Assembly (NCBI GenBank): GCA_030697795.1
Contig: JAUYOV010000004.1
Coordinates: forward strand, 11,831 to 75,830
Length of the DNA stretch: 64,000 nt
Reading direction: 5' to 3'
Origin: a bacterium
GTDB taxonomy: Bacteria; Patescibacteriota; Minisyncoccia; JACQLN01
The notes beneath the pieces were generated by a model. It was not told the origin of the DNA, ran no database searches, and saw only the letters and a program-made list of their open reading frames with translations. Positions 1,481-52,690 of the stretch are shown one piece after another. The position numbers were made by a program, and so were the translations under genes. The first letter of the stretch is position 1. Each line of letters opens with the position of its first letter.

Positions 1481-3251
1481 TAAGCTTTAATTGTATCTCT
1501 TTATTACCGTTCCATTCGTTAATATCCAACTCATAAACAATATCTAAAGTGTCGCCGATTTTAAAATCTTCAGCAAGCCCAGCTGTGTCGCGTTTGACGC
1601 GATGATTAAAAAATAAAACTGGAAATTCTTTACTTGTTTTTTTATCATGGGCGAAAATTTTCAAATGCTCGGAATTCTTCCCTAAGAAAACAAGTTTTTT
1701 GACTTCAATATTCTTACTTAAAAATTTTGGCTTAAAATTATTCATGCCAAACGGTTCAAACTTTTTAAGTGAATCCATCAAACCCCAATCAATTTCGCCC
1801 AAGTTTATTTCTGCGCTAATTTTTAATTTTTTCTGCAATAACTCTGAAGTTAAAACATTTTTAGCGTATTTATTTAAACCCAATTTTATTTTTTCTGCAT
1901 TAGAAACTTCAAAAGTGCAACCACCGGCCGCAGGATGCCCGCCATACTGTATAAATAAATCTTTAACCGAACCTAAAGCGTCTATTAAATTAAATCCCTC
2001 TATACTACGAAGTGATCCCTTGGCTTTAGTCTCGTCAACACTTTGATAAAGAATTACCGGCCGTTGATAGCGTTCAGCAATTTTAGAAGCCACCAAACCC
2101 AAAAGGTTGACCGACCAATCGGCCGAACCTTCCATAATAAAACTGGGTAATTCTGGATAAGCGTCTATCCGCGAACGGACATCTTTTAAAACTTTCTCTA
2201 CTATCTGCTGGCGCCTACGGTTATTATCGTTGAGCGATAAAACCAATTCATTTATTTTAGATTCGTCGCTACTAGTTAAAAGTTCGTAGGCTAAATTAGC
2301 GTGAGCCATACGGCTGGCCGCGTTAAGGCGCGGGCCTAAAGTAAAACCTAAAGTAAAGCTATCTAAATTAGTAGTAAGGGTTTCTAAGTTATATTTAGCC
2401 TCAACTCCGGCTGACTCCATTAATTTTCTTAGGCCAATTCTTTTGGTTTGAGCCAGAACAATTAAACCATATTTGACCATAACCCTATTTTCATCTAAAA
2501 GCGACACCATATCGGCCACTGTAGCCATAGCCACTAAATCTAAAAGCCATTTTTCTTTACCCTCCGAAGCTTTATGCGTAGGAGGGCTACCTTGAGTTGA
2601 CATCAAAGCACAATAGAGCTTGAACACTAAACCCGCCCCACACAAACCCTTAAACGGATATGTATCGCTTTCTTGATAAGGATTTACAAAAGCCACTGTT
2701 GCTGGGTTTCCTGCCACGGTTTGATGGTGATCTACCACAATCACATCCACACCTTTCTCTTTCGCCCACTCTATTTCTTTAATATTGGTGGTACCGCAAT
2801 CTAAAGTTATTATAAGCTTAGCCCCATTTGAAATTATTGATTCTAAAGCAGTTTGATTAACCCCGTGCCCTTCTTTTTGCCGATCGGGCATATACACCTC
2901 TACTGGATAATTTATGCCTTTAAAATATTCGCCTAAAACCGTGGCTGAACAGACGCCATCTACATCGTAATCAGCGTAGATAACTATTTTTTCCTTGCCC
3001 TGCGAAGCCTTGTGCGAAGCAGGGTTACCATTTATTGCCCGCCTGATTCTCTCACAAGCCTTATCCATATCTTTAAGCAAAAAAGGATCATGCAAACCGC
3101 CATCATATTTTGGATTAAAAAAACTTTCTATTTTTTCTAGCGTATTCAAACCGCGCTCAAACAGCATTTGACTGACCATAGCCGGATACTCCGAAAACTT
3201 AGCTAAAAAATCAGGCCTGGCCTGATCACTAAAAATCCATTTATATTTCAT
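1458..3251 (-). CDS. recJ: Single-stranded-DNA-specific exonuclease RecJ (DHH/DHHA1)
   Basis: DYDVDGVCS and VIVVDHHQ DHH motifs; length 597 aa. Contains two in-frame GC-rich hairpin inserts, both encoding HKAS(Q/E)GKEK. Confidence 0.85.
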   Translation of the reverse strand: MKYKWIFSDQARPDFLAKFSEYPAMVSQMLFERGLNTLEKIESFFNPKYDGGLHDPFLLKDMDKACERIRRAINGNPASHKASQGKEKIVIYADYDVDGVCSATVLGEYFKGINYPVEVYMPDRQKEGHGVNQTALESIISNGAKLIITLDCGTTNIKEIEWAKEKGVDVIVVDHHQTVAGNPATVAFVNPYQESDTYPFKGLCGAGLVFKLYCALMSTQGSPPTHKASEGKEKWLLDLVAMATVADMVSLLDENRVMVKYGLIVLAQTKRIGLRKLMESAGVEAKYNLETLTTNLDSFTLGFTLGPRLNAASRMAHANLAYELLTSSDESKINELVLSLNDNNRRRQQIVEKVLKDVRSRIDAYPELPSFIMEGSADWSVNLLGLVASKIAERYQRPVILYQSVDETKAKGSLRSIEGFNLIDALGSVKDLFIQYGGHPAAGGCTFEVSNAEKIKLGLNKYAKNVLTSELLQKKLKISAEINLGEIDWGLMDSLKKFEPFGMNNFKPKFLSKNIEVKKLVFLGKNSEHLKIFAHDKKTSKEFPVLFFNHRVKRDTAGLAEDFKIGDTLDIVYELDINEWNGNKEIQLKLIDYNKQN

Positions 3252-3258
3252 ACCAATT

Positions 3259-4440
3259 TTATTTATTCTGTGATTCTAACACTTTTATACCCGGCAGTTC
3301 ATCCCCCGCCAAAAATTCTAACATTGCCCCACCGCCAGTAGAAACATACGTCATTTTTTCAATTAAGTTTTGTTCAGCCAAAAAACCAATTAAATCTCCC
3401 CCGCCTATTATTTTTTCGCCTTGGTTTTCGGCTACGGCTTTAGCTATTTCCAACGAACCCTTTCTAAAATCGGACAGTTCAATATAGCCTACCGGACCGT
3501 TCCAAACAATCATTTTAGCTGTTTTAATTATTTCTTTAAAAGAAAAAATTGTTTCTGGCCCAATATCAACCACAAATTCTTCGGGTTTAACATCTTTTAT
3601 CTTTCTTACAGCTACATTCTTAGCTCTGGCTAAAGATTCTGTAACACAAACATCTGCTGGTAAAAATAAATTATTGGAAACAGAACTAATTCTTTTGGCT
3701 TCGGTTAATAACTTTTCTTCTACTAAAGATTTGCCCACGCTTAAACCTTTAGCGTTAAGGATAGTGTTAGCTAAAATACCGCCAAGCAAAATTGCTTCGG
3801 ATTTATTTAAAAATTCCTTAATCAATTTTAACTTTGTATCGGCTTTAGCTCCGCCCATTATAAAAACCAAAGGCTGGCGCGGTTTAGCTCGAACCAGACC
3901 CAACATAGAAACTTCTTTCTCTAAAAGAAAACCGGCGTAAGATTTTAAAAATTTAGGCAGCCCCACCATAGAAGCATGGGCGCGATGGGAATCCGCAAAG
4001 GCATCGTTAACAAAAATATCGCCGTAACTTGCCAATTTTTTAGAAAAATTTTCCTCGTTAGCTTCTTCTTCGGGATGAAACCTTAAATTTTCCAACAACA
4101 AAACCTCGCCTGCTTTAAGGCGCGATATTTTATTTTCCGTTTCTTGGCCAATAACATCTGTACTAAAAAATATTTTGTCCTTAGACCAAAGCTCTTTTAA
4201 CCTGCAAAAAACTGGGTATAAGCTAAAATGCATGTCTCGTCCTTGGGGTCGGCCCAAGTGGGCAATCAATATTATTTTAGCTCCAGCGTCCGAAAGATAA
4301 TTTAGGGTCGGCAAAATCGCGCGAATTCGCCAATCCGCCCCCACTGCGACTTCGCCGTCAACAACAGGCACATTAATGTCGGCTCTTAAAATAACTTTTT
4401 TTCCATTTAGATCGGTTATTTTTTTTAAACTAGGCAACAT
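3259..4440 (-). CDS. pgk: Phosphoglycerate kinase
   Basis: N-terminal KKVILRADINVP; full-length PGK architecture. Confidence 0.9.
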   Translation of the reverse strand: MLPSLKKITDLNGKKVILRADINVPVVDGEVAVGADWRIRAILPTLNYLSDAGAKIILIAHLGRPQGRDMHFSLYPVFCRLKELWSKDKIFFSTDVIGQETENKISRLKAGEVLLLENLRFHPEEEANEENFSKKLASYGDIFVNDAFADSHRAHASMVGLPKFLKSYAGFLLEKEVSMLGLVRAKPRQPLVFIMGGAKADTKLKLIKEFLNKSEAILLGGILANTILNAKGLSVGKSLVEEKLLTEAKRISSVSNNLFLPADVCVTESLARAKNVAVRKIKDVKPEEFVVDIGPETIFSFKEIIKTAKMIVWNGPVGYIELSDFRKGSLEIAKAVAENQGEKIIGGGDLIGFLAEQNLIEKMTYVSTGGGAMLEFLAGDELPGIKVLESQNK

Positions 4441-4443
4441 TGG

Positions 4444-5181
4444 TTATGATTTTTTTATTATTTCATAAAATTCACTACTTTTTAAAGAAGTTCCTCCCAC
4501 CAAAGCACCGTCAATATATGGTTCACTTAAAAACTTACTTGCATTTTCGGCATTAACAGAACCGCCATATAAAAATTTTATCTTTTTAGAATCTTCGCCA
4601 AATATCTTAAAGGCCACGTGCTTGAGTTCGCCTATTATTTGATTTGAGCGCGCTGGGTTATCGGGCTTAGCGTTGGGTGTGGTACTTATAGCCCACACGG
4701 GCTCGTAAGCTACAATTAATTTTTCTAAGTTTGATTTGTCGGCGCCTGTAATACTTTTTTTAAAACTTTTTATAACTTCATCCAAGCGATCATCTTTCTG
4801 AAGTTCACCCACCGCAACTATTACATTAAAATCGGCTGCTAAAGCTGCTTTCATTTTTCTGTTAATGTCTTCGTCGGTTTCACCAAAAATTAAACGGCGC
4901 TCGGAATGACCCACCAAAACCCATGCCACTCCAACGCCTTTTAGCATGGGCAAAGAAACCTCGCCGGTATAAGCCCCTCTTTTTTCCCAAAAAACATCTT
5001 GGGCGCCCCATTTAAAGTGCTTAAAACGTTTTACCAATTCTTCTAAAAAAATAAATGGCGGCAAAAGAACAACCCTTTCAAATTCCTCCACTTTCATTGA
5101 ATGCACCAAACCAGCAGCCAAAGTGATGGCTTCGTTTAAAGTGGTTGGATTTAATTTCCAATTACCTACGATTAGCTTCAT
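4444..5181 (-). CDS. tpiA: Triosephosphate isomerase
   Basis: MKLIVGNWKLNPT..., GHSERR, AYEPVWAIGTG-like motifs. Confidence 0.9.
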   Translation of the reverse strand: MKLIVGNWKLNPTTLNEAITLAAGLVHSMKVEEFERVVLLPPFIFLEELVKRFKHFKWGAQDVFWEKRGAYTGEVSLPMLKGVGVAWVLVGHSERRLIFGETDEDINRKMKAALAADFNVIVAVGELQKDDRLDEVIKSFKKSITGADKSNLEKLIVAYEPVWAISTTPNAKPDNPARSNQIIGELKHVAFKIFGEDSKKIKFLYGGSVNAENASKFLSEPYIDGALVGGTSLKSSEFYEIIKKS

Positions 5182-5191
5182 ATATTAATAA

Positions 5192-5273
5192 ATATATCAT
5201 CCCGAGTAGCATCATGGAGAAGACTATTTATATAAATAAAGAGGCTCCATGTCGTCTGCGAGGGGTGATATAT
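5192..5273. repeat. Copy A of the ~80-nt intergenic hairpin element, a candidate REP-doublet (REPIN-like; core CCGAGCAGCATTATGGAGAAGACT...AGGCTCCATATCGTCTGCGAGG)
   Basis: One of 4 copies sharing a ~60-nt core (about 80-90% identity by eye), with terminal inverted arms (ATATATCATCCC/GGGTGATATAT) that covary between copies. Confidence 0.8.
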
Positions 5274-5289
5274 TTACGCCAATAAACAC

Positions 5290-8267: not shown

Positions 8268-8354
8268 CAATCGCATCATTCCGAGCAGCATTATGGAGAA
8301 GACTAAATTATAAATAAAGAGGCTCCATATCGTCTGCGAGGAGTGATGCGATTG
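8268..8354. repeat. Copy B of the ~80-nt hairpin element
   Basis: Same core; terminal arms CAATCGCATCA/TGATGCGATTG. Confidence 0.8.
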
Positions 8355-9691: not shown

Positions 9692-9713
9692 GGTAATGGT
9701 AAAAAATTTAAAA

Positions 9714-9793
9714 AACATTGTCCCGAGCAGCATTATGGAGAAGACTATTTTATAAAATAAAGAGGCTCTATATCGTCTGCGAGGGATAATGTT
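9714..9793. repeat. Copy C of the ~80-nt hairpin element; fills the whole adk-map spacer
   Basis: Same core; arms AACATTGTCCC/GGGATAATGTT. Confidence 0.8.
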
Positions 9794-9795
9794 TT

Positions 9796-10362
9796 TTATA
9801 ACCCCAGTACCTGTTTAATTCGCAAATGAATTTCCTCTATACTACCCATACCATCAACCTTAATCAACCTATTCGATTTTTCGTAATATTCTATAGCTGG
9901 CATTGCATCGGTATTAAACCATTCCAAACGATGACGAATTGATTCTTCGGTATCATCTTTGCGTCCGCGTTTTAAAAGCCTTGTTACTGCTTCGTCTTCT
10001 GTAATATCTATTAAAACAACTTTAATATCTACTCTACCCAACCAACTTAAAACTTCGTCTATTTCTTTGGCTTCATCTAAACGACGAGGTGAGCCGTCAA
10101 AAATTATATTTTCTCCATCTTTTAATTTATAAACTAGTTCCTTCTGCCATAAAAAAGCGGCAATCCACTCTGGGGGCAGACCACCAGAATCCACAACTTC
10201 TTTAACTTTTTTACCAGCTAAAGTCTCTTCTTTTTCTAATAAACGAAAAAGATCGCCGGCGTAAATATAAAGACAGGGTTCTATAAGCTTTTTTAAAAGC
10301 TTAACCTGCGTGCCCTTACCCGACCCCGATCTGCCTAAAACGATTATGGTTTTACTAGACAT
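9796..10362 (-). CDS. adk: Adenylate kinase
   Basis: GRSGSGKGTQ P-loop and DGSPRRLDEA; start taken at MSSKT. Confidence 0.8.
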   Translation of the reverse strand: MSSKTIIVLGRSGSGKGTQVKLLKKLIEPCLYIYAGDLFRLLEKEETLAGKKVKEVVDSGGLPPEWIAAFLWQKELVYKLKDGENIIFDGSPRRLDEAKEIDEVLSWLGRVDIKVVLIDITEDEAVTRLLKRGRKDDTEESIRHRLEWFNTDAMPAIEYYEKSNRLIKVDGMGSIEEIHLRIKQVLGL

Positions 10363-10447: not shown

Positions 10448-11062
10448 TCAGTCATCACAGGGTGTAGAACGCCTATAATCTTCGAATCTACTTCCTGTAA
10501 AAAAATACTGCATCGCAAGTTCTTTTAAAACACTTCTATCGCCTTCACAAAAAAGAACAAAGTACTCTGCTATTTTTTCCACTTCTTCTTTTTTCCTTGG
10601 GCAAGACATTCCTCCATCTAATAAATCAAAAAGACGGCCGCGAAGTAAACTGTAACTATCAAGACTTTCTACCAATCTCATTTCATGGAAATCTTCGCTA
10701 TGTTTTCCATGCCTATCCCAAAAAATACAACTAGCCTGCTTGAGAGCTTCGACTATACTTTCAAGATCTTCAACTTTTACTTCTGGAAATAAAAACGCAT
10801 AATTTCCAAAAATATCTGCTATTGATACTCCCAAGAGTCTTATTACTTCCTTGGGCAAAGAAATATCTTTATATGATTTGTTTGATTCTTCTGCACTCGT
10901 AACTCCGTACTCCCTCAACCAGTGTCCCAAGTGAGCTGTATAATATATTGGGTCATTGCCCAACTTAACTTTTTCAAACCCAACATACATCTCAATGACC
11001 TGCGGTGGCTTTTCCAAAGAAAGAAGAGATTCTCTCTTCTTTGATTCTACAGCCTTTTTCAT
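10448..11062 (-). CDS. Hypothetical protein
   Basis: ORF only; no confident family. Confidence 0.4.
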   Translation of the reverse strand: MKKAVESKKRESLLSLEKPPQVIEMYVGFEKVKLGNDPIYYTAHLGHWLREYGVTSAEESNKSYKDISLPKEVIRLLGVSIADIFGNYAFLFPEVKVEDLESIVEALKQASCIFWDRHGKHSEDFHEMRLVESLDSYSLLRGRLFDLLDGGMSCPRKKEEVEKIAEYFVLFCEGDRSVLKELAMQYFFTGSRFEDYRRSTPCDD

Positions 11063-11173: not shown

Positions 11174-11211
11174 TTGTCCACTTTTCAGGCGATCACATTA
11201 AAAATGGACAA
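11174..11211. repeat. 38-nt palindromic repeat TTGTCCA-N24-TGGACAA, downstream copy flanking the PaaX-like gene
   Basis: Near-identical to the copy at 11786-11823, including the internal ATCACATT. Confidence 0.7.
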
Positions 11212-11231
11212 CTTACTATTATTCTAATTTT

Positions 11232-11786
11232 CTAATTTAAACCAAATCTACTGCGTAAAAAATTGTCATTGGTTATACTTTTGGTAACAATATAATGAAC
11301 ATACTTACCTACTCCAAAAACTTCAGCGATAAAATCAACTTCGTTTTGGCAATTGTATGGATAAATCCAAACACTTTTCTGGAAAGGTATTAAACCCAAA
11401 TTTTTCATTTTTTCTCCCAAAGCATTGCGAGCCGATTTTTTATTTTCTGGAATATCAAAAACGACAATATGCCAATCGCCATCCCATTTTTTAGCTTTTT
11501 TTATAACCAGGCTATCAAACCTATATTCTAAAATCTTTTTCTTGCCTTGTTCGGTAAGAATAATTTTGACTTTATCATCACCCTCCTCTAAAAATTCTAA
11601 AACCTTGGTTTGACGTAACCGCCATAACACCTTTGAAACTTTCCTGGAACTAACACCTTTAACCTTAATATTATAATTAAAACCTCTACCCGATCTAGTG
11701 GTCTTGACCATTGGAATGTAAAACGGATCAAAAAAATATTTGCCAAATATGGTTTTGAGAATAATTTTGGTGATTGTATAAGCCAT
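11232..11786 (-). CDS. PaaX-like winged-helix regulator with Cas2-fold C-terminal domain (paralog 1)
   Basis: W(H/R)IV(V/L)FDIPE...QKSVWIYP PaaX_C/Cas2-like signature; paralog at 50272..50844. Confidence 0.55.
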   Translation of the reverse strand: MAYTITKIILKTIFGKYFFDPFYIPMVKTTRSGRGFNYNIKVKGVSSRKVSKVLWRLRQTKVLEFLEEGDDKVKIILTEQGKKKILEYRFDSLVIKKAKKWDGDWHIVVFDIPENKKSARNALGEKMKNLGLIPFQKSVWIYPYNCQNEVDFIAEVFGVGKYVHYIVTKSITNDNFLRSRFGLN

Positions 11787-11823
11787 TGTCCACTTTTAAT
11801 GCTATCACATTTTTTATGGACAA
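11786..11823. promoter_or_regulatory. Second copy of the TTGTCCA-N24-TGGACAA palindrome, in the divergent promoter region between the PaaX-like gene and the helicase gene
   Basis: Overlaps the PaaX-like start codon; candidate operator. Confidence 0.45.
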
Positions 11824-11884: not shown

Positions 11885-14806
11885 ATGGTAACCAATATGG
11901 ATCTCTCTAGATTTAAAAAAGAACTAGGCGCCTTAAACCCCGAACAACGCCAAGCGGTGGAGACAATTGAGGGACCGGTTATGGTTATAGCCGGCCCTGG
12001 TACGGGAAAAACACAAATTTTAACTTTGCGGATTGCTAATATTTTAAACAAAACCGACACCAACCCCGAAAATATTCTAGCTTTAACTTTTACTGAATCT
12101 GCTACCGCCAACATGAGGCGTCGTCTAACCAGTTTGATCGGTACGCCTAGCTACTACATTAATATCCATACTTTTCACGGTTTTTGTAACAAGCTTATCC
12201 AAGATTACCCAGAAAACTTTCCAAAAATAATTGGCTCCACCAATGCTAATCAAGTAGATCAAATACAAATTATTAGAAAGATTATAGACGAGCATGGTTT
12301 TAAGAATTTGAAGCCATTCGGTAGTAAGTATTATTACGTTACCGAAATACTAAAAAACATCCGCCAATTAAAAAGCGAAGGTATTGGTCCTGTTGAATTT
12401 AAAAATATAACTTCTAAAATAAATCTCGAAGACCCCAAAGAGGAAAAAAATACCGAACGCTTAAAAGAACTATCTTTGGTATATAAAAAATATCAAGCCG
12501 AACTTTCAAAAAGAAAGCTATACGATTTTGAAGATATGATTTTGGAAACCATAAATTCGCTCAAAAAAGATAAGGATTTTTTGTTAGACCTTCAAGAAAA
12601 ATACCAATACATATTAGTAGACGAACACCAAGACACCAACGGCGCCCAAAATAAAGCCTTAGAGCTTTTAACCAATTATGATGAGAACCCAAACTTGTTT
12701 GTGGTAGGCGACGAAAAACAAGCTATTTACCGTTTTCAAGGCGCTAGTTTAGAAAACTTTTTATATTTTAAAGAAAAGTTTAAAAAAGCGAAATTAGTAG
12801 AATTAAAACAAAATTATCGCTCTACCCAAAAAATATTGGATGCCTCACATAGCTTAATAAAAAAAAATATAGCTGTCTTGGCTTTAACCAAACTCCAAGC
12901 CCAAAAAGGCAGGACCGACCTTCCTAGAAGGTCGGTCCTGCAGGTGGCAACCTGCGCTACACCCGAAATAGAATACCTTTTTATAACTCAAAAAATAAAA
13001 GAACTTCTAAGGCAAAAGGTTGAAGCTAGCAAAATTGCAATCTTATATAGAGAAAATAAAGATGCTTTTTCTGTTTCCGACTTTTTAACTAAACAGAATA
13101 TAAAACACGGCATAGAATCCGATGAAAACATATTAGAAGATATGGATATTAAAAAACTAAATATTCTTTTTGATGCCATAGAAAACTTTCCTTCTTTAGA
13201 ATTTTTAGCTCCAGCCTTACACCTAGATTTTTTAAATATAAACCCCTTAGAAGCTTATAAAGCCATAGAATCAAAAGATTTTAATAGTTCGCCTAATGTG
13301 TCTAACCTATTTAAAAAAATAGGTGAGCTTAAAAAATATAGCCGTAATAATGTTTTTGTTAAATTTTTTGAAAAAGTAATAAACGATACTGGTTTTTTAA
13401 AAAACATACTGGCCGAGGCCAATTACAACGAAAGATTAAATAAACTTCATGCTTTGTTTAGCGAAGTTAAAAAAATAAATTTTGCTAACCACAATTTTTC
13501 TTTACCAAACTATCTAAATCATTTAGAAATTTTAAGGGAACATAACTTGCCTATTCAAATTAAAACAAAAACATTACCCGCAAATGTTCGCTTAATGACG
13601 GCTCACCGAGCCAAAGGCCTAGAATTTGATTATGTATTTATTATAGGCGCCTACAATGGCCATTGGGGCAATAAAAGAAATATGAGCCATATAAAACTCC
13701 CCATAAAAACAAGCTTTGATGCTGATAAAATAGAAAAAAACGAGGATGAGCGCAGATTGTTTTATATGGCCATCACTCGAGCCAAAAAAGAAGCTTACAT
13801 AAGTTATTCCACTTCTTCGTTTGACGGCAAAGAGCAAGTGCCTAGCCAATTTATAAACGAAATCGATCCCGCCTTAAAAGAAGAACATATAATTGAGCAA
13901 AATCCAGAAATTAAAAAAATTGTACTAGCTTCAATTTCTAATAACAAAGCACCAAAAACAAATGAAAAAACTTTTGTGGTAGATATATTTTTGCGCCGTG
14001 GCTTCTCGCCTACCTCGCTAAATAATTATTTAACCTGCCCCTGGAATTTTTTCTATAACAATCTGCTTCGCATACCCAAAGCCCAAGCCAACTATTTAAT
14101 TTATGGCAACGCCAAGCACAAGGCCTTACAGCTTTTTTTTGATGAGAAAGAAAAAAATAAAAAAATAGGCTCTAAATTTATAATAGAAAAATTTATAGAA
14201 GATTTACGAAATTACCCTTTAATACCGAAGGATCATGAAACCTTGCTTAAAAAAGGAATAGAAAGTTTAACCGCCTATTATAATTTTTATAAAGATTCTT
14301 GGCCCGAAAAAACAGTAAACGAATACAACATTAAAGGAGTTAGTTTTAACTTAGGCGCGCAAGAAATAAAACTAAGCGGAAAACTAGATCGCTTAGAACT
14401 AAAACCAAATAGCCCAGCTGTTACAGTAGTAGATTACAAAACTGGAGCCGCCAAAAGCCGAAACGAAATTTTAGGCAACACCAAAAACGCCGATGGTAAT
14501 TATTTTAGACAACTTGTTTTCTACAAATTGCTTTTAGATATGTTACCCAACAAAAAATATAATATGCTGGCTGGTGCAATTGACTTCACTGAACCCCTCG
14601 ACTCCGCTCGACAAGGCTCGGGGCAAGCCGCTCGGGGCAAGCCTGCCTTTAAAAGAGAGGTTTTTGAAATTTCTAACGAAGAAACAAAAGCACTTAAAGA
14701 AACTATCACTAAATGCGCAAATGAAATTTTAAACTTAAAATTTTGGAACAAACTCTGCGGTGAAAAAGATTGTGAATATTGCGAGTTAAGAAAGTTAGTT
14801 TCTTAA
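11885..14806 (+). CDS. UvrD/PcrA-family SF1 helicase fused to a C-terminal PD-(D/E)xK nuclease domain with a Cas4/AddB-like Cys cluster
   Basis: AGPGTGKT Walker A, DEHQDTN motif II, DRLELK...VVDYKTG nuclease core, C...CGEKDCEYC. Contains two in-frame GC-rich inserts. Confidence 0.8.
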   Translation: MVTNMDLSRFKKELGALNPEQRQAVETIEGPVMVIAGPGTGKTQILTLRIANILNKTDTNPENILALTFTESATANMRRRLTSLIGTPSYYINIHTFHGFCNKLIQDYPENFPKIIGSTNANQVDQIQIIRKIIDEHGFKNLKPFGSKYYYVTEILKNIRQLKSEGIGPVEFKNITSKINLEDPKEEKNTERLKELSLVYKKYQAELSKRKLYDFEDMILETINSLKKDKDFLLDLQEKYQYILVDEHQDTNGAQNKALELLTNYDENPNLFVVGDEKQAIYRFQGASLENFLYFKEKFKKAKLVELKQNYRSTQKILDASHSLIKKNIAVLALTKLQAQKGRTDLPRRSVLQVATCATPEIEYLFITQKIKELLRQKVEASKIAILYRENKDAFSVSDFLTKQNIKHGIESDENILEDMDIKKLNILFDAIENFPSLEFLAPALHLDFLNINPLEAYKAIESKDFNSSPNVSNLFKKIGELKKYSRNNVFVKFFEKVINDTGFLKNILAEANYNERLNKLHALFSEVKKINFANHNFSLPNYLNHLEILREHNLPIQIKTKTLPANVRLMTAHRAKGLEFDYVFIIGAYNGHWGNKRNMSHIKLPIKTSFDADKIEKNEDERRLFYMAITRAKKEAYISYSTSSFDGKEQVPSQFINEIDPALKEEHIIEQNPEIKKIVLASISNNKAPKTNEKTFVVDIFLRRGFSPTSLNNYLTCPWNFFYNNLLRIPKAQANYLIYGNAKHKALQLFFDEKEKNKKIGSKFIIEKFIEDLRNYPLIPKDHETLLKKGIESLTAYYNFYKDSWPEKTVNEYNIKGVSFNLGAQEIKLSGKLDRLELKPNSPAVTVVDYKTGAAKSRNEILGNTKNADGNYFRQLVFYKLLLDMLPNKKYNMLAGAIDFTEPLDSARQGSGQAARGKPAFKREVFEISNEETKALKETITKCANEILNLKFWNKLCGEKDCEYCELRKLVS

Positions 14807-19654: not shown

Positions 19655-19699
19655 CAAGATTAGCTTATTAGATCGTTAGCTTCCTAGAAAATTCCTAGA

Positions 19700-19729
19700 A
19701 AGCTAAAAGCTAAAAGCTAAAAGCTAAAA
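19700..19729 (+). repeat. (GCTAAAA)x4 microsatellite directly abutting the ssb start codon
   Basis: Perfect heptamer tandem; no SD present. Confidence 0.8.
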
Positions 19730-23451: not shown

Positions 23452-23604
23452 GTTACAAAATTAAAATTTAAATATAAAAATTAAAAATTATCGAGAAACT
23501 ATAAGATCAGACTAGCATCACAGAGACTAAGTATCAAGATAAACCTTATAAACTTTTCAAATATATTGTTAACACTTTTTGCCCGATCGAGGGGTGGTTG
23601 TTAA

Positions 23605-23645
23605 CAATAAAAAACCACTCTTCGATTAGACTCAGAGTGGTTTTA
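23605..23645 (-). terminator. Rho-independent terminator after ftsK
   Basis: AAAACCACTCT...AGAGTGGTTTT hairpin plus U-run. Confidence 0.55.
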
Positions 23646-23653
23646 AAAAACTA

Positions 23654-26044
23654 TTAGGAAAAATTTTCTTTGTTTTCCTCTTCTGTGTGTATATCTATAG
23701 CTTCTGGTGGAACTTCTGATTTTACTAAAACCTCTCTAGGTTTAGCCCCTTCACCGGGACCAATCATGCCTTGAGCTTCTAGAATATCGAGTAATCTTGC
23801 GGCGCGGGCGTAGCCGACTCTTAATCGTCTCTGGAGTAAAGAAGCCGAAGCTTTACCAGCCTGCATAATAGCTTCTTTGGCTTGGAGTAAAAGTTCATCT
23901 TCGTCACTAGAATCCATTTTATCAAAACTTACACCGGTAAGTATTGGTCTATGATCTGAGACAGCTTTTTCCAAACCAAGCGCTTCTTCTGGATTAGCAT
24001 CAGGCGCGTCTTCGGGTAGATTAGATCTTATAAACGAAACAACTTTTTTAACTTCTTTTTCCGAAACAAAAGTGCCTTGAATACGTTTGGGCTTGGGCGA
24101 ATCAGAAGTTACAAAAAGCATATCGCCCATGCCTAAAAGTTTTTCGGCGCCAGCCGAATCTATAATTGTCCGTGAATCTATTTGCGAAGCCACCGCAAAA
24201 GCTATGCGCGTGGTAATGTTAGCTTTAATTAAACCCGTAATAACTTCTACCGAGGGCCGCTGTGTGGCTAAAACCAAATGTATGCCCACCGCCCGCGCCA
24301 TCTGCGCTAAACGCACTACTGTAGCTTCTATTTCACGCCCGTAAGTAGACATTAAGTCGGCCAGTTCATCTATAATGATAACCAAATAAGGCATTAAATC
24401 GTCGCCTTTTTTAGCATCAACTTGAGAATTAAAACCGCCAATATCTCTAACTTTTTTTTCGGAAAGCAGGCTATATCTTCTTTCCATTTCTGAAGTCGCC
24501 CATTTTAAAGCCGACACCGCTTTTTTAGGCTCTACTATAACTGGGGTTAAAAGATGCGGAATACCATTATACAAAGTTAATTCAACTCTTTTAGGATCAA
24601 TCATTATAAAGCGTAAAATTTCTGGCGAATGTTGATACAGCAAATTAACAATTAACGAATTTATGGCTACGCTTTTACCCGAACCCGTGGCGCCCGCAAT
24701 AAGCAGATGAGGCATTCTGGTTAAAGCCGACCACATCGACCGGCCAGAAACATCTTTGCCTAAACCAATATTTAAAAAGTTTTTATGCTCCGAAGCCTCA
24801 AAACCCTGAAGCAAAGCTTTTAAACGCACCACCATAGATTTTTGATTGGGTATTTCTATGCCCACTAAAGATTTTCCCGGAATCGGCGCTTCTATTCTTA
24901 AAGATTCTCCGCCTAGGGCTAAAGATAAATCTTTTTGCAAAGCTAATATGCTAGCCAGTTTGACTCCAGTGGCTGGTTTTAAAGTAAACTGGGTTACCGC
25001 AGGGCCAATATTAACTTCCGACATTTCTACCGGAATATTAAAATTCTCTAAAGTTTTCTGAATAATTATGGCATTGCCCTTAATGTCGCCCGTCACCGGC
25101 ATAGAGCCTTCGTCTTCTAATAAATCTAATGGTGGAAATTTATAGTTAACGGAAAGTGGCAACACACTAAATCCGCTCGCCATATTTTCTTGTTTCTTTT
25201 TTGAAACCTCATCTGACTTGGCCATTACTGACGTACCTTGAGGAGAATTTATAGTGACAGTGTCTTCAGCCGGTTTGGGCGCTTCAACTTTTTTAGCGGT
25301 TTGAGGTAGTTTAGCTTTGCTGGCTAACGTTGCAATTTTAGTTACTAAACCTTTTTCTAAAACTAATTTTTTTTCTGGAATCATTTCGCCATTTTCGTCC
25401 GCCTTAAAAACAAATTTTTCTTTTATTTGATCTTTCAAAGGCAAACGAAAAACAATCAACATAGCCGAAAAGAAAAACGCCACAAAAAATATTAAAGAAC
25501 CCCAAAAACCAAACATCTGCCTAAACGGCCAGCCAAAATAATAACCCATTTTACCGCCAGCCTGATTTTGCGAAAATATTTCCATCAAGCCCAAAAAACT
25601 TAAAATTAGAACACTGCCCCCGATTATAGTGGAACCTAATATTTTTTTCTTGTCGGAAGTTAAAATAAAAAACGACATTAAAAACATCGTTAAAGGCACA
25701 AAGAAACTACCGGAACCAAACATATAATCGGCACCGGCTGTAATGGCTTCGGAAAAAGATCCCGACAAGCCAAAGAAAGCTAAGGTAGTTACCAAAGCCA
25801 CAGCCAGCAAAAGAACGCCCACTACGCTTCTTTTAACGCTTGATTCTAAATGGAGCCAAGAAGTTGTTCTTTTTGGCTTTTTTACTTGAGATTTTTTAAG
25901 ATTTTTAATATCCTCCTTTTCTTTTTCAGCAGGCATTAGGTTTAATCTATTACTAGAAAATAATAACATACAAAAAAGCCAAATAACAACAACGTTTTTC
26001 AGGAAGGGCGGTCCTTCCGATAGATTTCCTGCTATTTTTGGCAA
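23654..26044 (-). CDS. ftsK: DNA translocase FtsK/SpoIIIE; true start downstream of the ORF-track start, whose first codons overlap a REP
   Basis: GATGSGKS Walker A, C-terminal gamma wHTH domain, N-terminal TM segments. Confidence 0.9.
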   Translation of the reverse strand: MPKIAGNLSEGPPFLKNVVVIWLFCMLLFSSNRLNLMPAEKEKEDIKNLKKSQVKKPKRTTSWLHLESSVKRSVVGVLLLAVALVTTLAFFGLSGSFSEAITAGADYMFGSGSFFVPLTMFLMSFFILTSDKKKILGSTIIGGSVLILSFLGLMEIFSQNQAGGKMGYYFGWPFRQMFGFWGSLIFFVAFFFSAMLIVFRLPLKDQIKEKFVFKADENGEMIPEKKLVLEKGLVTKIATLASKAKLPQTAKKVEAPKPAEDTVTINSPQGTSVMAKSDEVSKKKQENMASGFSVLPLSVNYKFPPLDLLEDEGSMPVTGDIKGNAIIIQKTLENFNIPVEMSEVNIGPAVTQFTLKPATGVKLASILALQKDLSLALGGESLRIEAPIPGKSLVGIEIPNQKSMVVRLKALLQGFEASEHKNFLNIGLGKDVSGRSMWSALTRMPHLLIAGATGSGKSVAINSLIVNLLYQHSPEILRFIMIDPKRVELTLYNGIPHLLTPVIVEPKKAVSALKWATSEMERRYSLLSEKKVRDIGGFNSQVDAKKGDDLMPYLVIIIDELADLMSTYGREIEATVVRLAQMARAVGIHLVLATQRPSVEVITGLIKANITTRIAFAVASQIDSRTIIDSAGAEKLLGMGDMLFVTSDSPKPKRIQGTFVSEKEVKKVVSFIRSNLPEDAPDANPEEALGLEKAVSDHRPILTGVSFDKMDSSDEDELLLQAKEAIMQAGKASASLLQRRLRVGYARAARLLDILEAQGMIGPGEGAKPREVLVKSEVPPEAIDIHTEEENKENFS
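26000..26032. repeat. REP1 palindrome CAGGAAGGGCGGTCCTTCCGATAGATTTCCTGC at the 3' end of RAYT-1
   Basis: Further copies at 26526-26542 (inside RAYT-1), 26735-26750, 59691-59722; related sequence inside the helicase CDS at 12909-12941. Confidence 0.8.
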
Positions 26045-26706
26045 TCTTTATAGGAAAGCCAATCAAGAATAAAATCATCAAAGTCCTTTACACCGTCGAA
26101 ATAATCTGGAAAAGCTTTTTTGTTGATAATTTTTTGCTCTAATCTTTGAACACCTACATAATCAAGATAACTGGAATAATTATAACCATTTAAAAAATTT
26201 TGGGCCGCTAATTTATTTTTAATACCAGTTTCTTTCCAGTTAGGTTCAATCAACTTAATAGAATTTAAGTGTGTATAGGCAAAAATATATTTCAGATATT
26301 CATCTCTTTCAATATGTTTTGCTTGAAACCTTCCCTGAAATAAAGAACCGCTACGATCATGTCTTTTATTGAAATACATGGAATAACCGGTGGATACTTT
26401 TCCCATAAATTTAGAGAGTCCACCTTCTACAGTTTCTCTTGCAAGTAAATGGAAATGATTCGGCATTAATACATGTGCGCCTAAAGCAGTAATATCATCG
26501 CCAGTATTTACATCAAAAATATCTGGGAAGGACCGCCCTTCCAAAAGAAGCTCATTGATATCTACACGGTCATTGTTATTACAAAGATAAAGGAGCATCA
26601 AAAAACGTCTATATTCGCCTGTAGATTCAAATATAGTCCTCTTATCCACACCTCGATTGTAGATATGATAATATTCCCCTACAGAGAAAGTGAATTTACG
26701 TTGCAT
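26032..26706 (-). CDS. REP-associated tyrosine transposase (RAYT; IS200-like HuH Y1 transposase), copy 1
   Basis: GEYYHIYNRGV, HuH motif LMPNHFHLL, catalytic-Tyr helix region; flanked by REP1 palindromes. Confidence 0.7.
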   Translation of the reverse strand: MQRKFTFSVGEYYHIYNRGVDKRTIFESTGEYRRFLMLLYLCNNNDRVDINELLLEGRSFPDIFDVNTGDDITALGAHVLMPNHFHLLARETVEGGLSKFMGKVSTGYSMYFNKRHDRSGSLFQGRFQAKHIERDEYLKYIFAYTHLNSIKLIEPNWKETGIKNKLAAQNFLNGYNYSSYLDYVGVQRLEQKIINKKAFPDYFDGVKDFDDFILDWLSYKDCQK

Positions 26707-26840: not shown

Positions 26841-26918
26841 GTCGGGGGTAGCTCAATTGGTCAGAGCGGCTGACTGTGGATCAGACTGTGTCGGTTCAAA
26901 CCCGGCTCCCCGGCACCA
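26841..26918 (+). tRNA. tRNA-His (anticodon GTG) with G-1:C73
   Basis: Manual cloverleaf: G-1, acceptor TCGGGGG/TCCCCGG, D-arm GCTC/GAGC, anticodon loop CTGTGGA, T-arm GTCGG-TTCAAAC-CCGGC. Confidence 0.7.
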
Positions 26919-27017: not shown

Positions 27018-27123
27018 TCCGCGGTAACTCAGAGTGCTGACTTAAGGGCCGCAAGCCCCGGCCGGTTAGAGTGCCTAGCTGATAACTAGGAGGTCGTTGG
27101 TTCGAATCCAACCCGCGGAGCCA
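27018..27123 (+). tRNA. tRNA-Ile (anticodon GAT) carrying a ~31-nt hairpin insertion in the D-loop
   Basis: Acceptor TCCGCGG/CCGCGGA, D-stem ACTC/GAGT, anticodon arm CCTAG-CTGATAA-CTAGG, T-arm GTTGG-TTCGAAT-CCAAC, G73-CCA. Insert 27033-27063 AGTGCTGACTTAAGGGCCGCAAGCCCCGGCC. Confidence 0.5.
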
Positions 27124-30745: not shown

Positions 30746-30841
30746 AACACAGAATTTCTAATTTCCAATATCTAAATCCTAAACAATTTCTAAATTCTAA
30801 TTTTCCAGAATATATTTGGAGCATTGTGATTTGAGATTTGT

Positions 30842-32128
30842 TTAGAGTTTAGTGCTTAGGATTTGGAGTTCGATTAGAAATTTTTCTAACTCTTTTAGTT
30901 TAACCATCTCCACTTTCTCGCTGGCGCGATTTTTGACCTCCACACTTTCTTGCGCCAAAGTTTTATCGCTAACTATTATCCGATATGGAATACCAATTAA
31001 ATCAGCATCCGACAACTTTACACCGGCCGATTCTTCGCGATCATCCCATAAGACGTCAAACGTCTTTAAAGATTGATACAGCTTCTCGGCTTCTTTCTTG
31101 GTATCGCCCAATGAAACTAAATGAATTAAAAACGGAGCCACGCTCTTTGGCCACTTCATTCCAGCCTCATCGTTAAAAACTTCGGCCAGCACTCCAACTA
31201 AACGGCTCATACCTATACCATAACTGCCTAAGTATGGCGGTTTATCTTTACCATCGGAATCTTTAAAATTAATCCCCATTTTTTCGGAATAAACTGTGCC
31301 AAATCTAAATATATTTCCAATTTCAACGGAACTAGCTTCTTCAACTTGTCCACCGCATTTTGGACAAGGATCCCCAATCTTGTGAGTATAAATTTCTTTG
31401 TTTTGCGCCCAATCACATTCGCCAGCCGGCGAATTGCAGAAATAAATATTATCTTCACCTACTGGGCTTACTAACTGAAATTCATGTGTATGACCCGAAG
31501 TAAACACACCGCCCGAAGCTTCAACCACCTTAACATCTTTTAATCCAACCCTGTTAAACACTCGTAAATAAGCATCTTTAACTTCCCAGTAAAATTTGTC
31601 TAGATCTTCCCCTGTGGTATGCAAACTATATAAATCTTTCATCATAAACTCCCGCCCGCGCAATAGGCCTGACTTAGCCCGAGCCTCGTTTCTAAACTTG
31701 GTAGAAAAGTGATAAAGCTTAATCGGTAAATTTTTATAGCTTAAAGAATTTTTCCTAACTACATCTAAAAATATTTCCTCGTGTGTAAAAGAAAGTCCAT
31801 ATTCTTTTTCGTCTACCGATTTAAACTGATACATTATCTGTTTAACATTTGGATCTGCCCAACGGCCGGTTTCATTCCAAACATCGCGAGGATGAAGTAA
31901 TGGCATTAAAACTTCGGCACTGCCAATAGCATTCATTTCTTCACGCACGATTTGTTCTATTTTTTGATAAACCCGCCAACCTAAAGGCAAAAAGGTGTAT
32001 GAACCCGCCATAAGCTTGTCTACAAAACCCCCACGCAAAAGCAACCTAGCATTAGTAGCTGTTTCGTCCTTTGGATCATCCCTGCGAGTGTTTATAAACG
32101 ATTGAGAGTAACGCATAAGAGTTATCAC
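30842..32128 (-). CDS. proS: Prolyl-tRNA synthetase (short form lacking the INS editing domain)
   Basis: MRYSQSF..LLRGG..YTFLPLGWRV..IVREEMN..G..EVLMP, closely paralleling E. coli ProRS motifs. Confidence 0.85.
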   Translation of the reverse strand: MITLMRYSQSFINTRRDDPKDETATNARLLLRGGFVDKLMAGSYTFLPLGWRVYQKIEQIVREEMNAIGSAEVLMPLLHPRDVWNETGRWADPNVKQIMYQFKSVDEKEYGLSFTHEEIFLDVVRKNSLSYKNLPIKLYHFSTKFRNEARAKSGLLRGREFMMKDLYSLHTTGEDLDKFYWEVKDAYLRVFNRVGLKDVKVVEASGGVFTSGHTHEFQLVSPVGEDNIYFCNSPAGECDWAQNKEIYTHKIGDPCPKCGGQVEEASSVEIGNIFRFGTVYSEKMGINFKDSDGKDKPPYLGSYGIGMSRLVGVLAEVFNDEAGMKWPKSVAPFLIHLVSLGDTKKEAEKLYQSLKTFDVLWDDREESAGVKLSDADLIGIPYRIIVSDKTLAQESVEVKNRASEKVEMVKLKELEKFLIELQILSTKL

Positions 32129-32789: not shown

Positions 32790-32823
32790 TAGCATGAGCC
32801 ATGCGATCGCATGACTCATGCTA
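32790..32823. repeat. GCGATCGC-core palindrome TAGCATGAGCCATGCGATCGCATGACTCATGCTA (REP3 family)
   Basis: Family members at 50245-50280, 50896-50929, 52902-52931. Confidence 0.7.
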
Positions 32824-34734: not shown

Positions 34735-35391
34735 ATGAGAAAAACAATTTTGGCCGAAGGCGAATATTATCATATCTATAATCGTGGTGTAGAGAAAAGA
34801 AACATATTTTTAAACGATAACGATAAGTGGCGATTTATGACCCTCTTACTAATATTTCAAGGCAAGGGTCATATTGATAATATGCAACGTATTGTTAAAC
34901 TTGTTCAACATTCAATGTTGAACAAAGAACCATTTGACGACATCCTTTTGAATAAAAAGGTTGAACTGATATGTTTCTGTCTGATGCCAAATCATTATCA
35001 CCTTATATTAAAAGAAATTAAAAATGGAGGAATTTCTAGTTTTGGGCAAAGATTAGGTAACAGTTATACAAAATATTTCAACACTAAATATAAACGCACT
35101 GGACACTTATTTGGTGGAAGATTTCAAACGGTTCACATAACTCAAAATACATATCTCAAACATTTATCTTCTTATATACACAATAATCTAACAGAACTAA
35201 ATAATTGGAAAAAATTGGAAAACGAATATTTTTGGTCAAGTCTGCCAGATTATGTAAATAAAAACCGATGGGATAAGTTTCTAAACCCGGAAATAATTCT
35301 AAACCAGTTTAGGGGTAAAAATGATTATCTAAATTACATCAAAAATAATCGAAACAAAATTAAAAAACTAGATGGTTACTATATAGATTAA
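34735..35391 (+). CDS. REP-associated tyrosine transposase (RAYT), copy 2
   Basis: GEYYHIYNRGV, LMPNHYHLIL HuH motif; paralog of 26032..26706. Confidence 0.7.
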   Translation: MRKTILAEGEYYHIYNRGVEKRNIFLNDNDKWRFMTLLLIFQGKGHIDNMQRIVKLVQHSMLNKEPFDDILLNKKVELICFCLMPNHYHLILKEIKNGGISSFGQRLGNSYTKYFNTKYKRTGHLFGGRFQTVHITQNTYLKHLSSYIHNNLTELNNWKKLENEYFWSSLPDYVNKNRWDKFLNPEIILNQFRGKNDYLNYIKNNRNKIKKLDGYYID

Positions 35392-44031: not shown

Positions 44032-44100
44032 GTTTAGCTTTCTAGCTTCTTAGCTTTCTAGCTTCTTAGGATTTAACTAAAAAGCTAATAAACTAACATC

Positions 44101-50244: not shown

Positions 50245-50280
50245 TTAGCACGAGTCATGCGATAGCAGTTCTCATGCTAA
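50245..50280. repeat. REP3-family palindrome (degenerate) overlapping the 3' end of PaaX-like paralog 2
   Basis: TTAGCACGAGTCATGCGATAGCAGTTCTCATGCTAA. Confidence 0.6.
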
Positions 50281-50844
50281 ATCAAAAATCTTGAGCAAGT
50301 GTAATTCATTATCTAAATCCGTAGCCGTAATAATTCTAACGTAGGAACGAATACTAAAATATTCAATCAAGAAATTGATTTCATCTTGGCAAGGATAAGG
50401 CTGTATCAAAACACTTTTTTGATATTCATAAAAACCTAATCTTTTTAGAGTTTCTCTTAAAGCTTCGCGGGCAGGTTTATGTTTTTCTGGTATATCAAAT
50501 AAAACTATTCGCCATTTTTTATCCCAGACTTTAGGTTTTTTGATTCCCATATTGTCTATATTAAAGGTAATGGCTTTATCCTTGCCTTTGTCTGTTAAAA
50601 TCATAGTTAAAGAACCGTCGGGGTTTTCATGTTCGCGGATAAGTTTGGATTTATACAAGCTGGCTATAGCTCTTTCTAAAGACTGTTTGTTAATTTTTTT
50701 CCATTCTTCAGCCGTGCTTTCTAATACTCGAAAATATTGTTTAGAGGTTCTGGCAAAGCTAAGACCTATTCCAGTAAATAAAAGTAATAATGCTTTTTGT
50801 TGGTTGGGACCTAAGCGTTGAATTTTCTTTTTCAAATTAATCAT
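50272..50844 (-). CDS. PaaX-like winged-helix regulator with Cas2-fold C-terminal domain (paralog 2)
   Basis: WRIVLFDIPEKHKPAREALRETLKRLGFYEYQKSVLIQP. Confidence 0.55.
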   Translation of the reverse strand: MINLKKKIQRLGPNQQKALLLLFTGIGLSFARTSKQYFRVLESTAEEWKKINKQSLERAIASLYKSKLIREHENPDGSLTMILTDKGKDKAITFNIDNMGIKKPKVWDKKWRIVLFDIPEKHKPAREALRETLKRLGFYEYQKSVLIQPYPCQDEINFLIEYFSIRSYVRIITATDLDNELHLLKIFDLA

Positions 50845-50895: not shown

Positions 50896-50929
50896 TAGCA
50901 CGAGAACTGCGATCGCAGTTCTCGTGCTA
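50896..50929. promoter_or_regulatory. Perfect 34-nt palindrome TAGCACGAGAACTGCGATCGCAGTTCTCGTGCTA in the promoter region of PaaX-like paralog 2
   Basis: REP3 family; candidate operator. Confidence 0.5.
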
Positions 50930-51721: not shown

Positions 51722-52690
51722 CTTGTAATGTCTCATATCTTATGCATAGGTTTTAGTTAGTATTTGAGCCATCTTTTGAGCAGGGGTTAAACCCTGTAAA
51801 CCTAGATGTGGACGATGGTTGATAAACTTGTCAGTGTAGGTTTTTAAGGAGCTATTCAAGGTGGTTAGAGACTGATTTAAGGATACTTTTCTCCAGAGTT
51901 CTTCGTCAATGGTTCTAATGAATCTCTCTACTATGGAATTGTCTCTAGGTTTTCTGATTCTTGAATAACGATGCAGAATCTTTAACTTGTTTAATTCTTG
52001 AACAAACTCTTTCTGAAACTCGGGACCATTATCTGTTTGAATCATCCCTACTTTAAAAGGTAATCTAGTTAAAGCTGATCGTAAAGCTCGGCTGGCTGAT
52101 GCCATAGAAAGTTTTTCTGTAACAATACAGACTGGATATATATCTGGTAGCCACATCCACGAAAACATACTGGTATCTTCTAGATTGATTTTTAACCATT
52201 AGATGCTTGGTATCTAACAAAACTAGCTTGCCGTCCTCTTGGGGTCTAAAGATGGGAGGTAGTTGTCTGTGTCTCCTTTGGTATCTATGTTTTGATTTAA
52301 TCAGCTGGTTTCTTTTAAGGACGCGGTAGGTTGTTATGTTGGTAATGCTGATACCTTGAGCCTTCAGGTAAAGAACTATCTTTTGATGACACCAACCCTC
52401 GGTTTTTCTTAAATGAATAATCTTTTCTTCTAACTCCAGAGAGGTCTGCTTGGGATGGGCACTTAAAGGCATCGGTCGAAAACTTTGAAGAGTGGGATAC
52501 ATACCCAACCAGCGGCTGATGGTAGATTGGTTGAAACCAAAGTATCTACTGATTCTCGACTGCGACCAACCTAACTCTTTAAGTTGCCAAACTTGGCGTC
52601 TGACTGCGATAATGTTTTTGTGAATGTGCATATATGGTGAGTGTATCATTTGACTACTCACCTATGCATTTTGAATGAAACATTACAATT
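51722..52690 (-). mobile_element. IS481-family-like insertion sequence (~970 bp) with imperfect ~30-bp terminal inverted repeats (TTGTAATGTYTCAT...ATGCATAGGT)
   Basis: Left IR 51722-51752 matches the reverse complement of right IR 52655-52690; encodes an HTH plus DDE (rve) transposase. Confidence 0.7.
51740..52661 (-). pseudogene. IS481-like DDE transposase split into two overlapping ORFs by a frameshift in a T5/A5 homopolymer (~52112-52116)
   Basis: The ORFs 52065..52661 (HTH plus start of rve) and 51740..52168 (DNGPEF...rve core) are related by a +1 shift. IS481 transposases are normally single-ORF. Confidence 0.55.

Follow-up and report, generated by a model that had tools for sequence, protein, structure and literature searches.

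A mini-PaaX gene, here called paralog 1, was examined in a 64-kb stretch of contig JAUYOV010000004.1 (hereafter the window, 64,000 nucleotides, G+C 38%) from an uncultured groundwater bacterium of the Candidate Phyla Radiation (CPR). The best matches to its protein are found in metagenome-assembled genomes (MAGs) of Candidatus Sungbacteria and Parcubacteria. The gene lies between two copies of a 38-bp palindrome, U upstream of the start codon and D downstream of the stop codon, and U falls inside the 98-nt gap that separates paralog 1 from a gene for a helicase-nuclease fusion (Table 1). The other neighbours are a hypothetical gene, adk, map, ydjM and ruvX, and no paa genes are among them.

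The original prediction placed the gene between 38-nt copies with 7-bp inverted ends, and both positions were confirmed. In the window, the pattern TTGTCCA-N(20-28)-TGGACAA has two matches where 0 are expected, and 100 dinucleotide-preserving shuffles of the window returned 0; a search of the 64 kb for further copies thus retrieved only the two already known. The copies (repeat family D19) are direct repeats identical at 31/38 positions (82%), so that their repetition stands while their description as near-identical was generous. The final base of U is the A of the paralog 1 ATG, and D ends 20 nt past the stop codon. In U, the two stretches that separate the arms from the centre do not pair, while the sense RNA of D can form a stem of about 12 bp, G-U pairs included. 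The core of the repeat (GTGATAGC/GTGATCGC) is degenerate and its non-complementary segments are longer than usual, and the repeat fits the tripartite plan that was found across the family.

Table 1. Features of the window that bear on the two mini-PaaX genes and their palindromes
Feature	Position	Strand	Remarks
Mini-PaaX gene, paralog 1	11232..11786	-	184-aa open reading frame (ORF) between both palindrome copies
U copy, 38-bp palindrome TTGTCCA-N24-TGGACAA	11786..11823		gene orientation: TTGTCCATAAAAAATGTGA / TAGCATTAAAAGTGGACAA
D copy of the 38-bp palindrome	11174..11211		gene orientation: TTGTCCATTTTTAATGTGA / TCGCCTGAAAAGTGGACAA
UvrD-type helicase fused to PD-(D/E)XK nuclease	11885..14806	+	973 aa, divergent from paralog 1
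204-aa hypothetical gene, downstream of D	10448..11062	-	position variable among relatives
Mini-PaaX gene, paralog 2	50272..50844	-	190 aa, 39% identical to paralog 1
U palindrome of paralog 2, 34 nt	50896..50929		TAGCACGAGAACTGCGA / TCGCAGTTCTCGTGCTA, centre GCGATCGC
D palindrome of paralog 2, 34 nt	50246..50279		overlaps the last 8 nt of the gene; + strand centre GCGATAGC
Orphan palindrome	32790..32823		paralog-2-like arms TAGCATGAG...CTCATGCTA, centre GCGATCGC, between convergent genes
Apparent disrupted insertion sequence (IS) element	51740..52661	-	ORFs overlap and encode HTH_32/HTH_23 and fragments of an rve integrase core; paralog 2 lies 1 kb away

The protein of paralog 1 matches the Pfam family PaaX_M ("PaaX central Cas2-like domain") with an E-value of 4.5e-22. 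Its scores against Cas2 models stay below threshold, with 18.0 bits against 23.8 for PF09827 and 20.2 bits against 24.5 for TIGR01573, and the PaaX equivalog TIGR02277 gives 23.6 bits for paralog 1 and 31.7 bits for paralog 2 at a cut-off of 264.55. Since these NCBIfam scores lie under their cut-offs, paralog 1 is neither a true PaaX nor a Cas2. The PaaX_C effector domain has no match in paralog 1, which stops after the Cas2-like domain at 184 aa as compared with about 305-316 aa for PaaX chains. The claim of a Cas2-like C-terminal domain was therefore borne out by the PaaX_M/Cas2-like fold, and its assignment to PaaX_C was not. An AlphaFold2 model (predicted local distance difference test score 88) consists of an N-terminal winged helix, with a predicted recognition helix at about residues 46-58 and a wing at 62-76, followed by a beta-alpha-beta-beta-alpha-beta domain of ferredoxin fold at about residues 99-184; the structures nearest to it are those of E. 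coli PaaX and of Cas2. The C-terminal domain carries the motifs FDIPE and QKSVW, its beta-1 ends in a conserved Asp, and the residues invariant across 23 homologs include FD110IP, R119, Q135-K136-S137 and E148. On our reading of the alignment, FDIP and QKSVW probably correspond to the Cas2 signature. No match to transposase, HUH or recombinase domains was found in paralog 1; PADLOC returned weak Cas2 matches only, and PHROGs none.

The family is large, comprising 1078 clusters at 50% identity (E <= 1e-30), nearly all of 180-230 aa. At least 591 relatives were confirmed among the 600 pattern matches listed for species-representative genomes, and the best 80 loci come mostly from Patescibacteria MAGs, often with several paralogs per MAG. 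The window itself holds a second member. Paralog 2 had been described as flanked in the same way by a different palindrome family; the flanking is real, and the difference is confined to the arms. Because the tripartite layout and the conserved centre GC[G/T]AT[C/A]GC are common to both, the palindromes of the two paralogs share one architecture, of which paralog 2, with its GCGATCGC core, is the typical case.

Bracketing was examined by the best local alignment of upstream against downstream flank for 89 family genes, with a null distribution drawn across loci. The score exceeded the 95th percentile of the null in 84/89 genes and the 99th in 67/89, with a mean of 46.7 against 21.6. The expectation that orthologs and relatives are bracketed by lineage-specific palindromes is thus borne out. 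A flank score of at least 36 was reached by 75% of family genes as compared with 4/229 other genes at the same loci, the four exceptions being low-complexity repeats around unrelated genes. The repeats flanking a family gene are mostly in direct orientation. One MAG (locus L044) carries tandem mini-PaaX genes at 2883-3483 and 4088-4709, each with its palindrome pair, and the two copies around the first gene are inverted, not direct.

The family palindromes are about 30-45 bp long. Among 81 non-redundant genes, the best palindrome is centred on C[G/T]AT[C/A]G in 67 upstream and 58 downstream flanks, and the 125 palindromes aligned on this centre divide into CGATCG (66), CTATCG (29), CTATAG (17) and CGATAG (8). 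In most cases a G...C pair flanks the centre, and the 8-mer seen most often is GCGATCGC. The centre GC[G/T]AT[C/A]GC is near-universal and the arms are lineage-specific. Complementarity is 0.7-0.9 at offsets 8-20 from the centre, about 0.6 at offsets 5-7 and high at 1-4, with little sequence information outside the centre; the left flank of the aligned palindromes is A-rich and the right flank T-rich. Since the arms are complementary, offsets 5-7 less so, and the core is conserved, the site is tripartite, each half running from a variable arm through a few unconstrained positions to the conserved core.

These palindromes keep close to their genes. In 538 kb, 85/90 centre-type palindromes lie within 200 nt of the end of a family gene, and shuffled sequence yielded 0. 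The D centre lies a median 40 nt past the stop codon (interquartile range 31-52) and the U centre some tens of nt ahead of the start codon, with a median centre-to-centre distance of 653 bp. Upstream neighbours are co-directional in 56 cases and otherwise oriented in 23 (n=79), and downstream neighbours are co-directional in 43 and convergent in 37. As neighbour orientations are mixed, the bracket belongs to the mini-PaaX gene and not to its neighbours. The position of U in a divergent region shared with the helicase-nuclease, correctly noted for this locus, is a property of the orthogroup and does not extend to the family. The layout of a gene inside its own operators holds for most sampled family members and appears to be undescribed; no description of it was found in a limited literature search, by which novelty is unproven, and the literature searched returned no papers on PaaX in Patescibacteria or on PaaX as Cas2-like.

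Several simpler accounts of the palindromes were rejected. That D is the operator of the next gene fails as a general rule on the near-even split of downstream orientations, and generic CPR intergenic repeats or terminators are dismissed by the neighbour control together with the gene-adjacent specificity. Avoidance or enrichment of CGATCG as a restriction site was considered as well, with 8 observed against 6 expected. The palindromes match no known RNA family in Rfam.

Six orthologs of paralog 1 (54-87% identity) were found, all between the helicase-nuclease gene and adk and each with U and D; the helicase gene is divergent and adjacent in 5/6 of these loci. The U centre ATGTGATAGCAT is identical in all six, and the arms differ. 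In L001 (87%), the TTGTCCA...TGGACAA arms are kept in both copies. In L005 (82%), both arms of both copies read TTATCCA...TGGATAA, which amounts to a symmetric four-fold change. Elsewhere the arms are TGTCCAC (L089), TAGTCAC (L091) and GGTCTTAA (L088), and the D centre of L088 is in flipped orientation.

The history of the cassette differs from that of its surroundings. L091 is the closest relative of the window because both of its flanks are the most similar, with 92% amino acid identity in the helicase N-terminus (0.70 at third positions) and 83% in ADK (0.66). Its mini-PaaX, however, is only 56% identical (third-position 0.48), with different arms. The L001 cassette, in contrast, is 87% identical (0.74) while its flanks reach 72-77% (0.51-0.54). 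Along the collinear alignment of the window with L091, identity is 0.7-0.9 in the flanks and falls to 0.35-0.77 over 11862-11118, which comprises the unit of U, gene and D plus about 40-55 nt outside each palindrome. Against L001, a single block exceeds 80%; it begins 8 nt beyond U and ends 2 nt beyond D. Furthermore, G+C at third codon positions (GC3) remains at 0.24-0.35 in mini-PaaX while it ranges over 0.26-0.51 in ADK. Based on this difference between cassette and flanks, repressor and operators have been exchanged as a unit, for which homologous recombination through the conserved flanks would be enough. A metagenome scan for empty sites or solo palindromes at the helicase-adk locus returned two close relatives, both with the L091-type cassette. 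The interval is also a variable hotspot around the cassette, since a PP2C_2-like gene changes side, lying upstream of it in L001 (3039-3896) and downstream in L089 (1700-2590). Beside the cassette, the window and L091 carry a 204/211-aa gene, and L005 a convergent Band_7 gene.

We favour, with a probability of roughly 60%, the reading that mini-PaaX and its palindromes form a self-contained autoregulatory repressor/operator module, which would be exchanged horizontally like the immunity region of a phage. A mini-PaaX dimer would bind the 38-bp palindrome as double-stranded DNA, with its two winged helices reading the outer arms TTGTCCA and TGGACAA, whose centres are about 31 bp apart, and its Cas2-like core spanning the conserved centre, which is here a degenerate TGTGAT[A/C]GC. 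Binding at U would repress mini-PaaX itself and probably the helicase-nuclease promoter too, while D would serve as a second operator closing the module, perhaps as a loop anchor or as a transcriptional roadblock, and as a 3' hairpin in RNA. Repressor and both operators would then make up a specificity module that is swapped between lineages. The cognate operator put forward in the original prediction is in this respect the preferred account, in view of the anatomy of the site, the family-wide bracketing and the symmetric arm changes, with binding itself inferred.

The division of labour within the dimer follows from what varies. The arms and the N-terminal half of the protein vary while the centre and the Cas2-like domain are conserved, which suggests, on modest statistics, that arm recognition falls to the winged helices, with the dimer core turned towards the centre. 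In Mantel tests of arm similarity against protein identity, the values were 1/500 for the N-terminal part and 3/500 for the winged helix, as compared with 45/500 for the linker and 22/500 for the Cas2 domain. Co-repression of the helicase-nuclease by paralog 1 is plausible because the helicase gene is the direct divergent neighbour in most of the orthologous loci. A weak promoter-like site for the helicase gene, TGGACA(11817)-16-AATACT(11844), overlaps the right arm of U, and one for the 204-aa gene lies at 11141-11113 on the minus strand, 33 nt beyond D. For the mini-PaaX gene itself, a sigma-70 promoter was sought and dropped after weak matches only, as was an extended -10 element (TGATAGCAT) read by eye in the U centre, which the promoter scan did not support.

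Several points weigh against this proposal. The correlation between arms and protein is weak (rho about 0.1). The operator role of U and D is putative, read from sequence, and a second copy past the stop codon is unexplained by ordinary autoregulation. Helical phasing of the U-D distance, taken as a sign of looping, was not significant (best p about 0.09). The promoter scan, of sigma-70 type and applied to CPR bacteria whose promoters are uncharacterised, gave consensus matches of only 9/12. Finally, the palindromes bear marks of strand folding. When U and D are compared, 59 two-sided differences are compensated within the copy and 32 are uncompensated, an excess over what chance would give, beside 170 one-sided differences. 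D falls in the 3' part of the sense transcript unless transcription ends before it; on the sense strand, mismatches in D are G-T over A-C by 35:11 (p 5e-4) and in U by 41:37. Compensation and G-T bias point to hairpin formation, as RNA or through DNA template switching, besides or instead of duplex recognition.

An account built mainly on RNA hairpins would make D a 3' terminator or stabiliser and U a hairpin of the 5' untranslated region or the terminator of the upstream gene; the Cas2-like (RNase-like) domain might further bind or cleave the conserved apical loop GAUC/UAUC, with post-transcriptional autoregulation as the outcome. The G-T excess in D fits with it, and so do the asymmetric centres, CTATCG over CGATAG by 14:1 in D and 15:7 in U, and the more perfect palindromes of the D copies. 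Sense RNAs fold with z of -3.9 to -8.7, the D stem of 12 bp admits G-U pairs, the flanks are A-rich on the left and T-rich on the right, and palindromy is kept without conservation of sequence. We nevertheless consider this account unlikely. U has no strand bias in its mismatches and its segments between arms and centre do not pair; only about 14% of the palindromes have at least 5 T in the next 8 nt, so that they are not canonical intrinsic terminators; and terminators would require neither a shared centre throughout a family of over 1000 clusters nor arms that differ from paralog to paralog. The lack of an Rfam match counts in the same direction, and a C-to-T bias on the non-template strand could yield the G-T excess. 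D may, on our reading, double as a 3' RNA hairpin or be shaped by transcription-associated mutation, and palindromy may be maintained by template switching; neither would contradict duplex binding at the putative operator U.

It is likewise improbable that the gene and its palindromes are a selfish or mobile cassette, in which the palindromes are element ends and the Cas2-fold domain, with the invariant Asp of FDIPE as in Cas2 beta-1, nicks or cleaves the centre or else folds the ends as hairpins for excision, insertion or homing of the unit. The history of the unit does differ from both flanks, with the drop in identity matching the palindromes within about 40-55 nt, and its GC3 stays steady next to that of the host ADK. 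Paralog 2 and its relative in L055 are 75% identical with similar arms in unrelated genomic contexts, solo palindromes exist (four in the window), small genomes hold several paralogs, the clusters of the family at 50% identity number over 1000, no variation occurs in the Cas2 signature residues, and palindromy is kept independently in each copy. However, six orthologs at one locus speak of long-term residence, and swapping is explained as well by homologous recombination via the conserved flanks. Searches for identical multi-copy cassettes, empty sites and target-site duplications found none, the protein is without a transposase, HUH or recombinase domain, and among 2.9 million viral contigs the family is all but missing, with 1 truncated, unbracketed match. 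The earlier suggestion that this Cas2-fold protein is a nuclease mobilising hairpins is accordingly left unsupported, Y1_Tnp/HUH matches being missing too; horizontal exchange is real, its mechanism aside. A related form, in which the protein is more than a repressor, reads the arms of the roughly 40-bp palindrome with its private winged helix, and with its conserved, Asp-containing core nicks, cleaves or pairs the GCGATCGC-like centre and so drives cassette replacement or homing, or keeps the palindromes perfect, seems to us just as doubtful. If it were true, mini-PaaX cassettes would be a previously unrecognised class of self-recognising, horizontally exchanged CPR modules, and the system a free-living relative of the function of Cas2 in measuring out some 30 bp of DNA beside palindromic repeats.

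Recombination sites provide the least likely explanation, and we give it very little weight. Arms of about 13 bp around an 8-bp core resemble loxP or dif, the repeats are mostly direct, flipped copies occur in the L088 D centre and in L044, and cassettes have been exchanged between lineages; the gene would then be a floxed cassette that a host recombinase could excise or invert, with mini-PaaX as cargo or accessory factor. In tyrosine-recombinase sites, however, the arms bind the enzyme, so that a conserved core with variable arms is the reverse of what such sites show. Each copy keeps its internal palindromy, without the hybrid arms expected after crossover, and no recombinase is linked to the loci.

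The favoured repressor/operator module has a close counterpart in PaaX, by which the paa operons of E. coli and Pseudomonas are repressed. The E. coli PaaX operator is TGATTC-N27-GAATCA, and PaaX represses its own promoter (PMC9493321). In the Pa region of K-12, TGATTC-N27-GAATCG was found around the TTAATTAA centre, and the exact form TGATTC-N-GAATCA had no match in the K-12 paaZ-paaA region. The PaaX site measures 39 bp (6-N27-6, half-site centres about 33 bp apart) and the mini-PaaX site 38 bp (7-N24-7, about 31 bp); we infer that so unusually long a spacer would be required by a dimer whose halves a Cas2-like core keeps apart. Both proteins have a winged helix followed by the PaaX_M dimerisation domain (PDB 8a39 and 3l09). 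Unlike PaaX, which responds to phenylacetyl-CoA, mini-PaaX is without the PaaX_C effector and without nearby paa genes, and its family, judged by the best 80 loci, occurs mostly in Patescibacteria with several paralogs per genome. To our knowledge, PaaX is not bracketed by two operators, nor does it use a GCGATCGC-type centre.

Cas2 and VapD-type proteins share with mini-PaaX the beta-alpha-beta-beta-alpha-beta ferredoxin fold, the FDIP Asp at the end of beta-1 and QxSVW. In the Cas1-Cas2 complex, about 23 bp of duplex run along the Cas2 dimer, which serves as a ruler; by analogy, the Cas2-like core of mini-PaaX could span the middle of the 38-bp site. Mini-PaaX differs from Cas2 in its fusion to a winged helix and in scoring below the Cas2 thresholds. 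The window contains no cas1 and no CRISPR array, and no cas genes occur among the called neighbours of related loci. We know of no nuclease activity in PaaX_M domains.

In exchange, the nearest parallel is with the immunity region of lambdoid phages, where the repressor gene lies between OL and OR, which are linked by looping, and is swapped as a module. Here too a putative repressor between its own operators is exchanged as a specificity module within collinear flanks. The co-variation of operator and repressor appears as symmetric arm changes in both copies and as incongruence with the flanks, while covariation of arms with protein is weak. The mini-PaaX module differs in being chromosomal, with a single gene, one palindrome per side and an unrelated fold.

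The cassettes of repetitive extragenic palindromes (REP) with REP-associated tyrosine transposases (RAYT), and those of IS200/IS605, likewise combine a small gene with hairpin-capable palindromes on both sides. Mini-PaaX, in contrast, lacks PF01797 (Y1_Tnp/HUH), its arms are private to each paralog, and its palindromes are confined mostly to its own flanks, as seen in the 2 copies of the paralog 1 repeat in 64 kb and the 85/90 gene-adjacent palindromes over 538 kb. RAYT/REP-like cassettes had been reported in the same window, and two Y1_Tnp genes with flanking palindromes are indeed present, at 34735..35391 (plus strand) and 26032..26706 (minus strand). For these genes, TGTTCAACATTCAATGTTGAACA was recorded at 34692, 34899 and 35390, and a GGAAGGGCGGTCCTTCC-type palindrome near 26000, 26530 and 59691.

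CPR bacteria have tiny genomes with few recognisable regulators, and their control of transcription is barely known. If the proposed module is correct, it would offer a family of considerable size (over 1000 clusters at 50% identity) in which a protein and its cognate DNA site can be read from sequence. With two sites per sampled gene, several dozen natural protein-operator pairs would be at hand for the study of winged-helix specificity, and potentially far more across the family. The layout, in which a regulator lies between operators of its own that share an invariant core, was not found described in the literature searched, and regulator and operators would be exchanged between lineages as one unit. 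Furthermore, the module would link a Cas2-fold domain to DNA sites in a setting other than CRISPR, a point that bears on how Cas2 came to act on duplexes of about 30 bp.

Four orphan palindromes with a CGATCG-type centre lie away from the mini-PaaX genes, at 32790-32823, 52901-52932, 63773-63814 and 23563-23610. The first, whose arms resemble those of paralog 2, is a candidate additional site for that paralog. Another sits within the coding region of mnmA at about aa 320, between two Pfam domains. Two have TGTTAAC arms, one upstream of secD and the other between ftsK and an HTH_25 gene, and a third paralog located beyond the window may act on these two; tblastn found no third paralog inside it, and the window end beside the orphan at 63793 encodes none.

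Other repeats recur between the genes of the window. An intergenic repeat of 60-86 nt with internal inverted repeats GAGCAGCATTATGGAGAAGACTA...GAGGCTCCATATCGTCTGCGAG is present in at least 4 copies (5190-5275, 8283-8340, 9711-9796 and 37986-38043), and L005 carries it at 3295-3383 and 4729-4802, 83-95% identical and in gaps of the same gene block; it could be a miniature inverted-repeat transposable element, a terminator or a small RNA. Low-complexity TAGCTTn/AAAGCTA runs occupy 19676-19729, 44034-44103, 45269-45335 and 53391-53427, and AATTTCTAAATnCTAA runs recur between genes at 30753-30882, 33944-34041, 39084-39206 and 62242-62306. GAATAT-type runs similar to the families of the window flank unrelated genes in the CPR loci L064, L080 and L013. 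Next to tRNA-His (26841-26918), Rfam gives a weak match to a second tRNA at 27049-27119 on the plus strand (30.1 bits, gathering threshold 29), which ARAGORN did not report.

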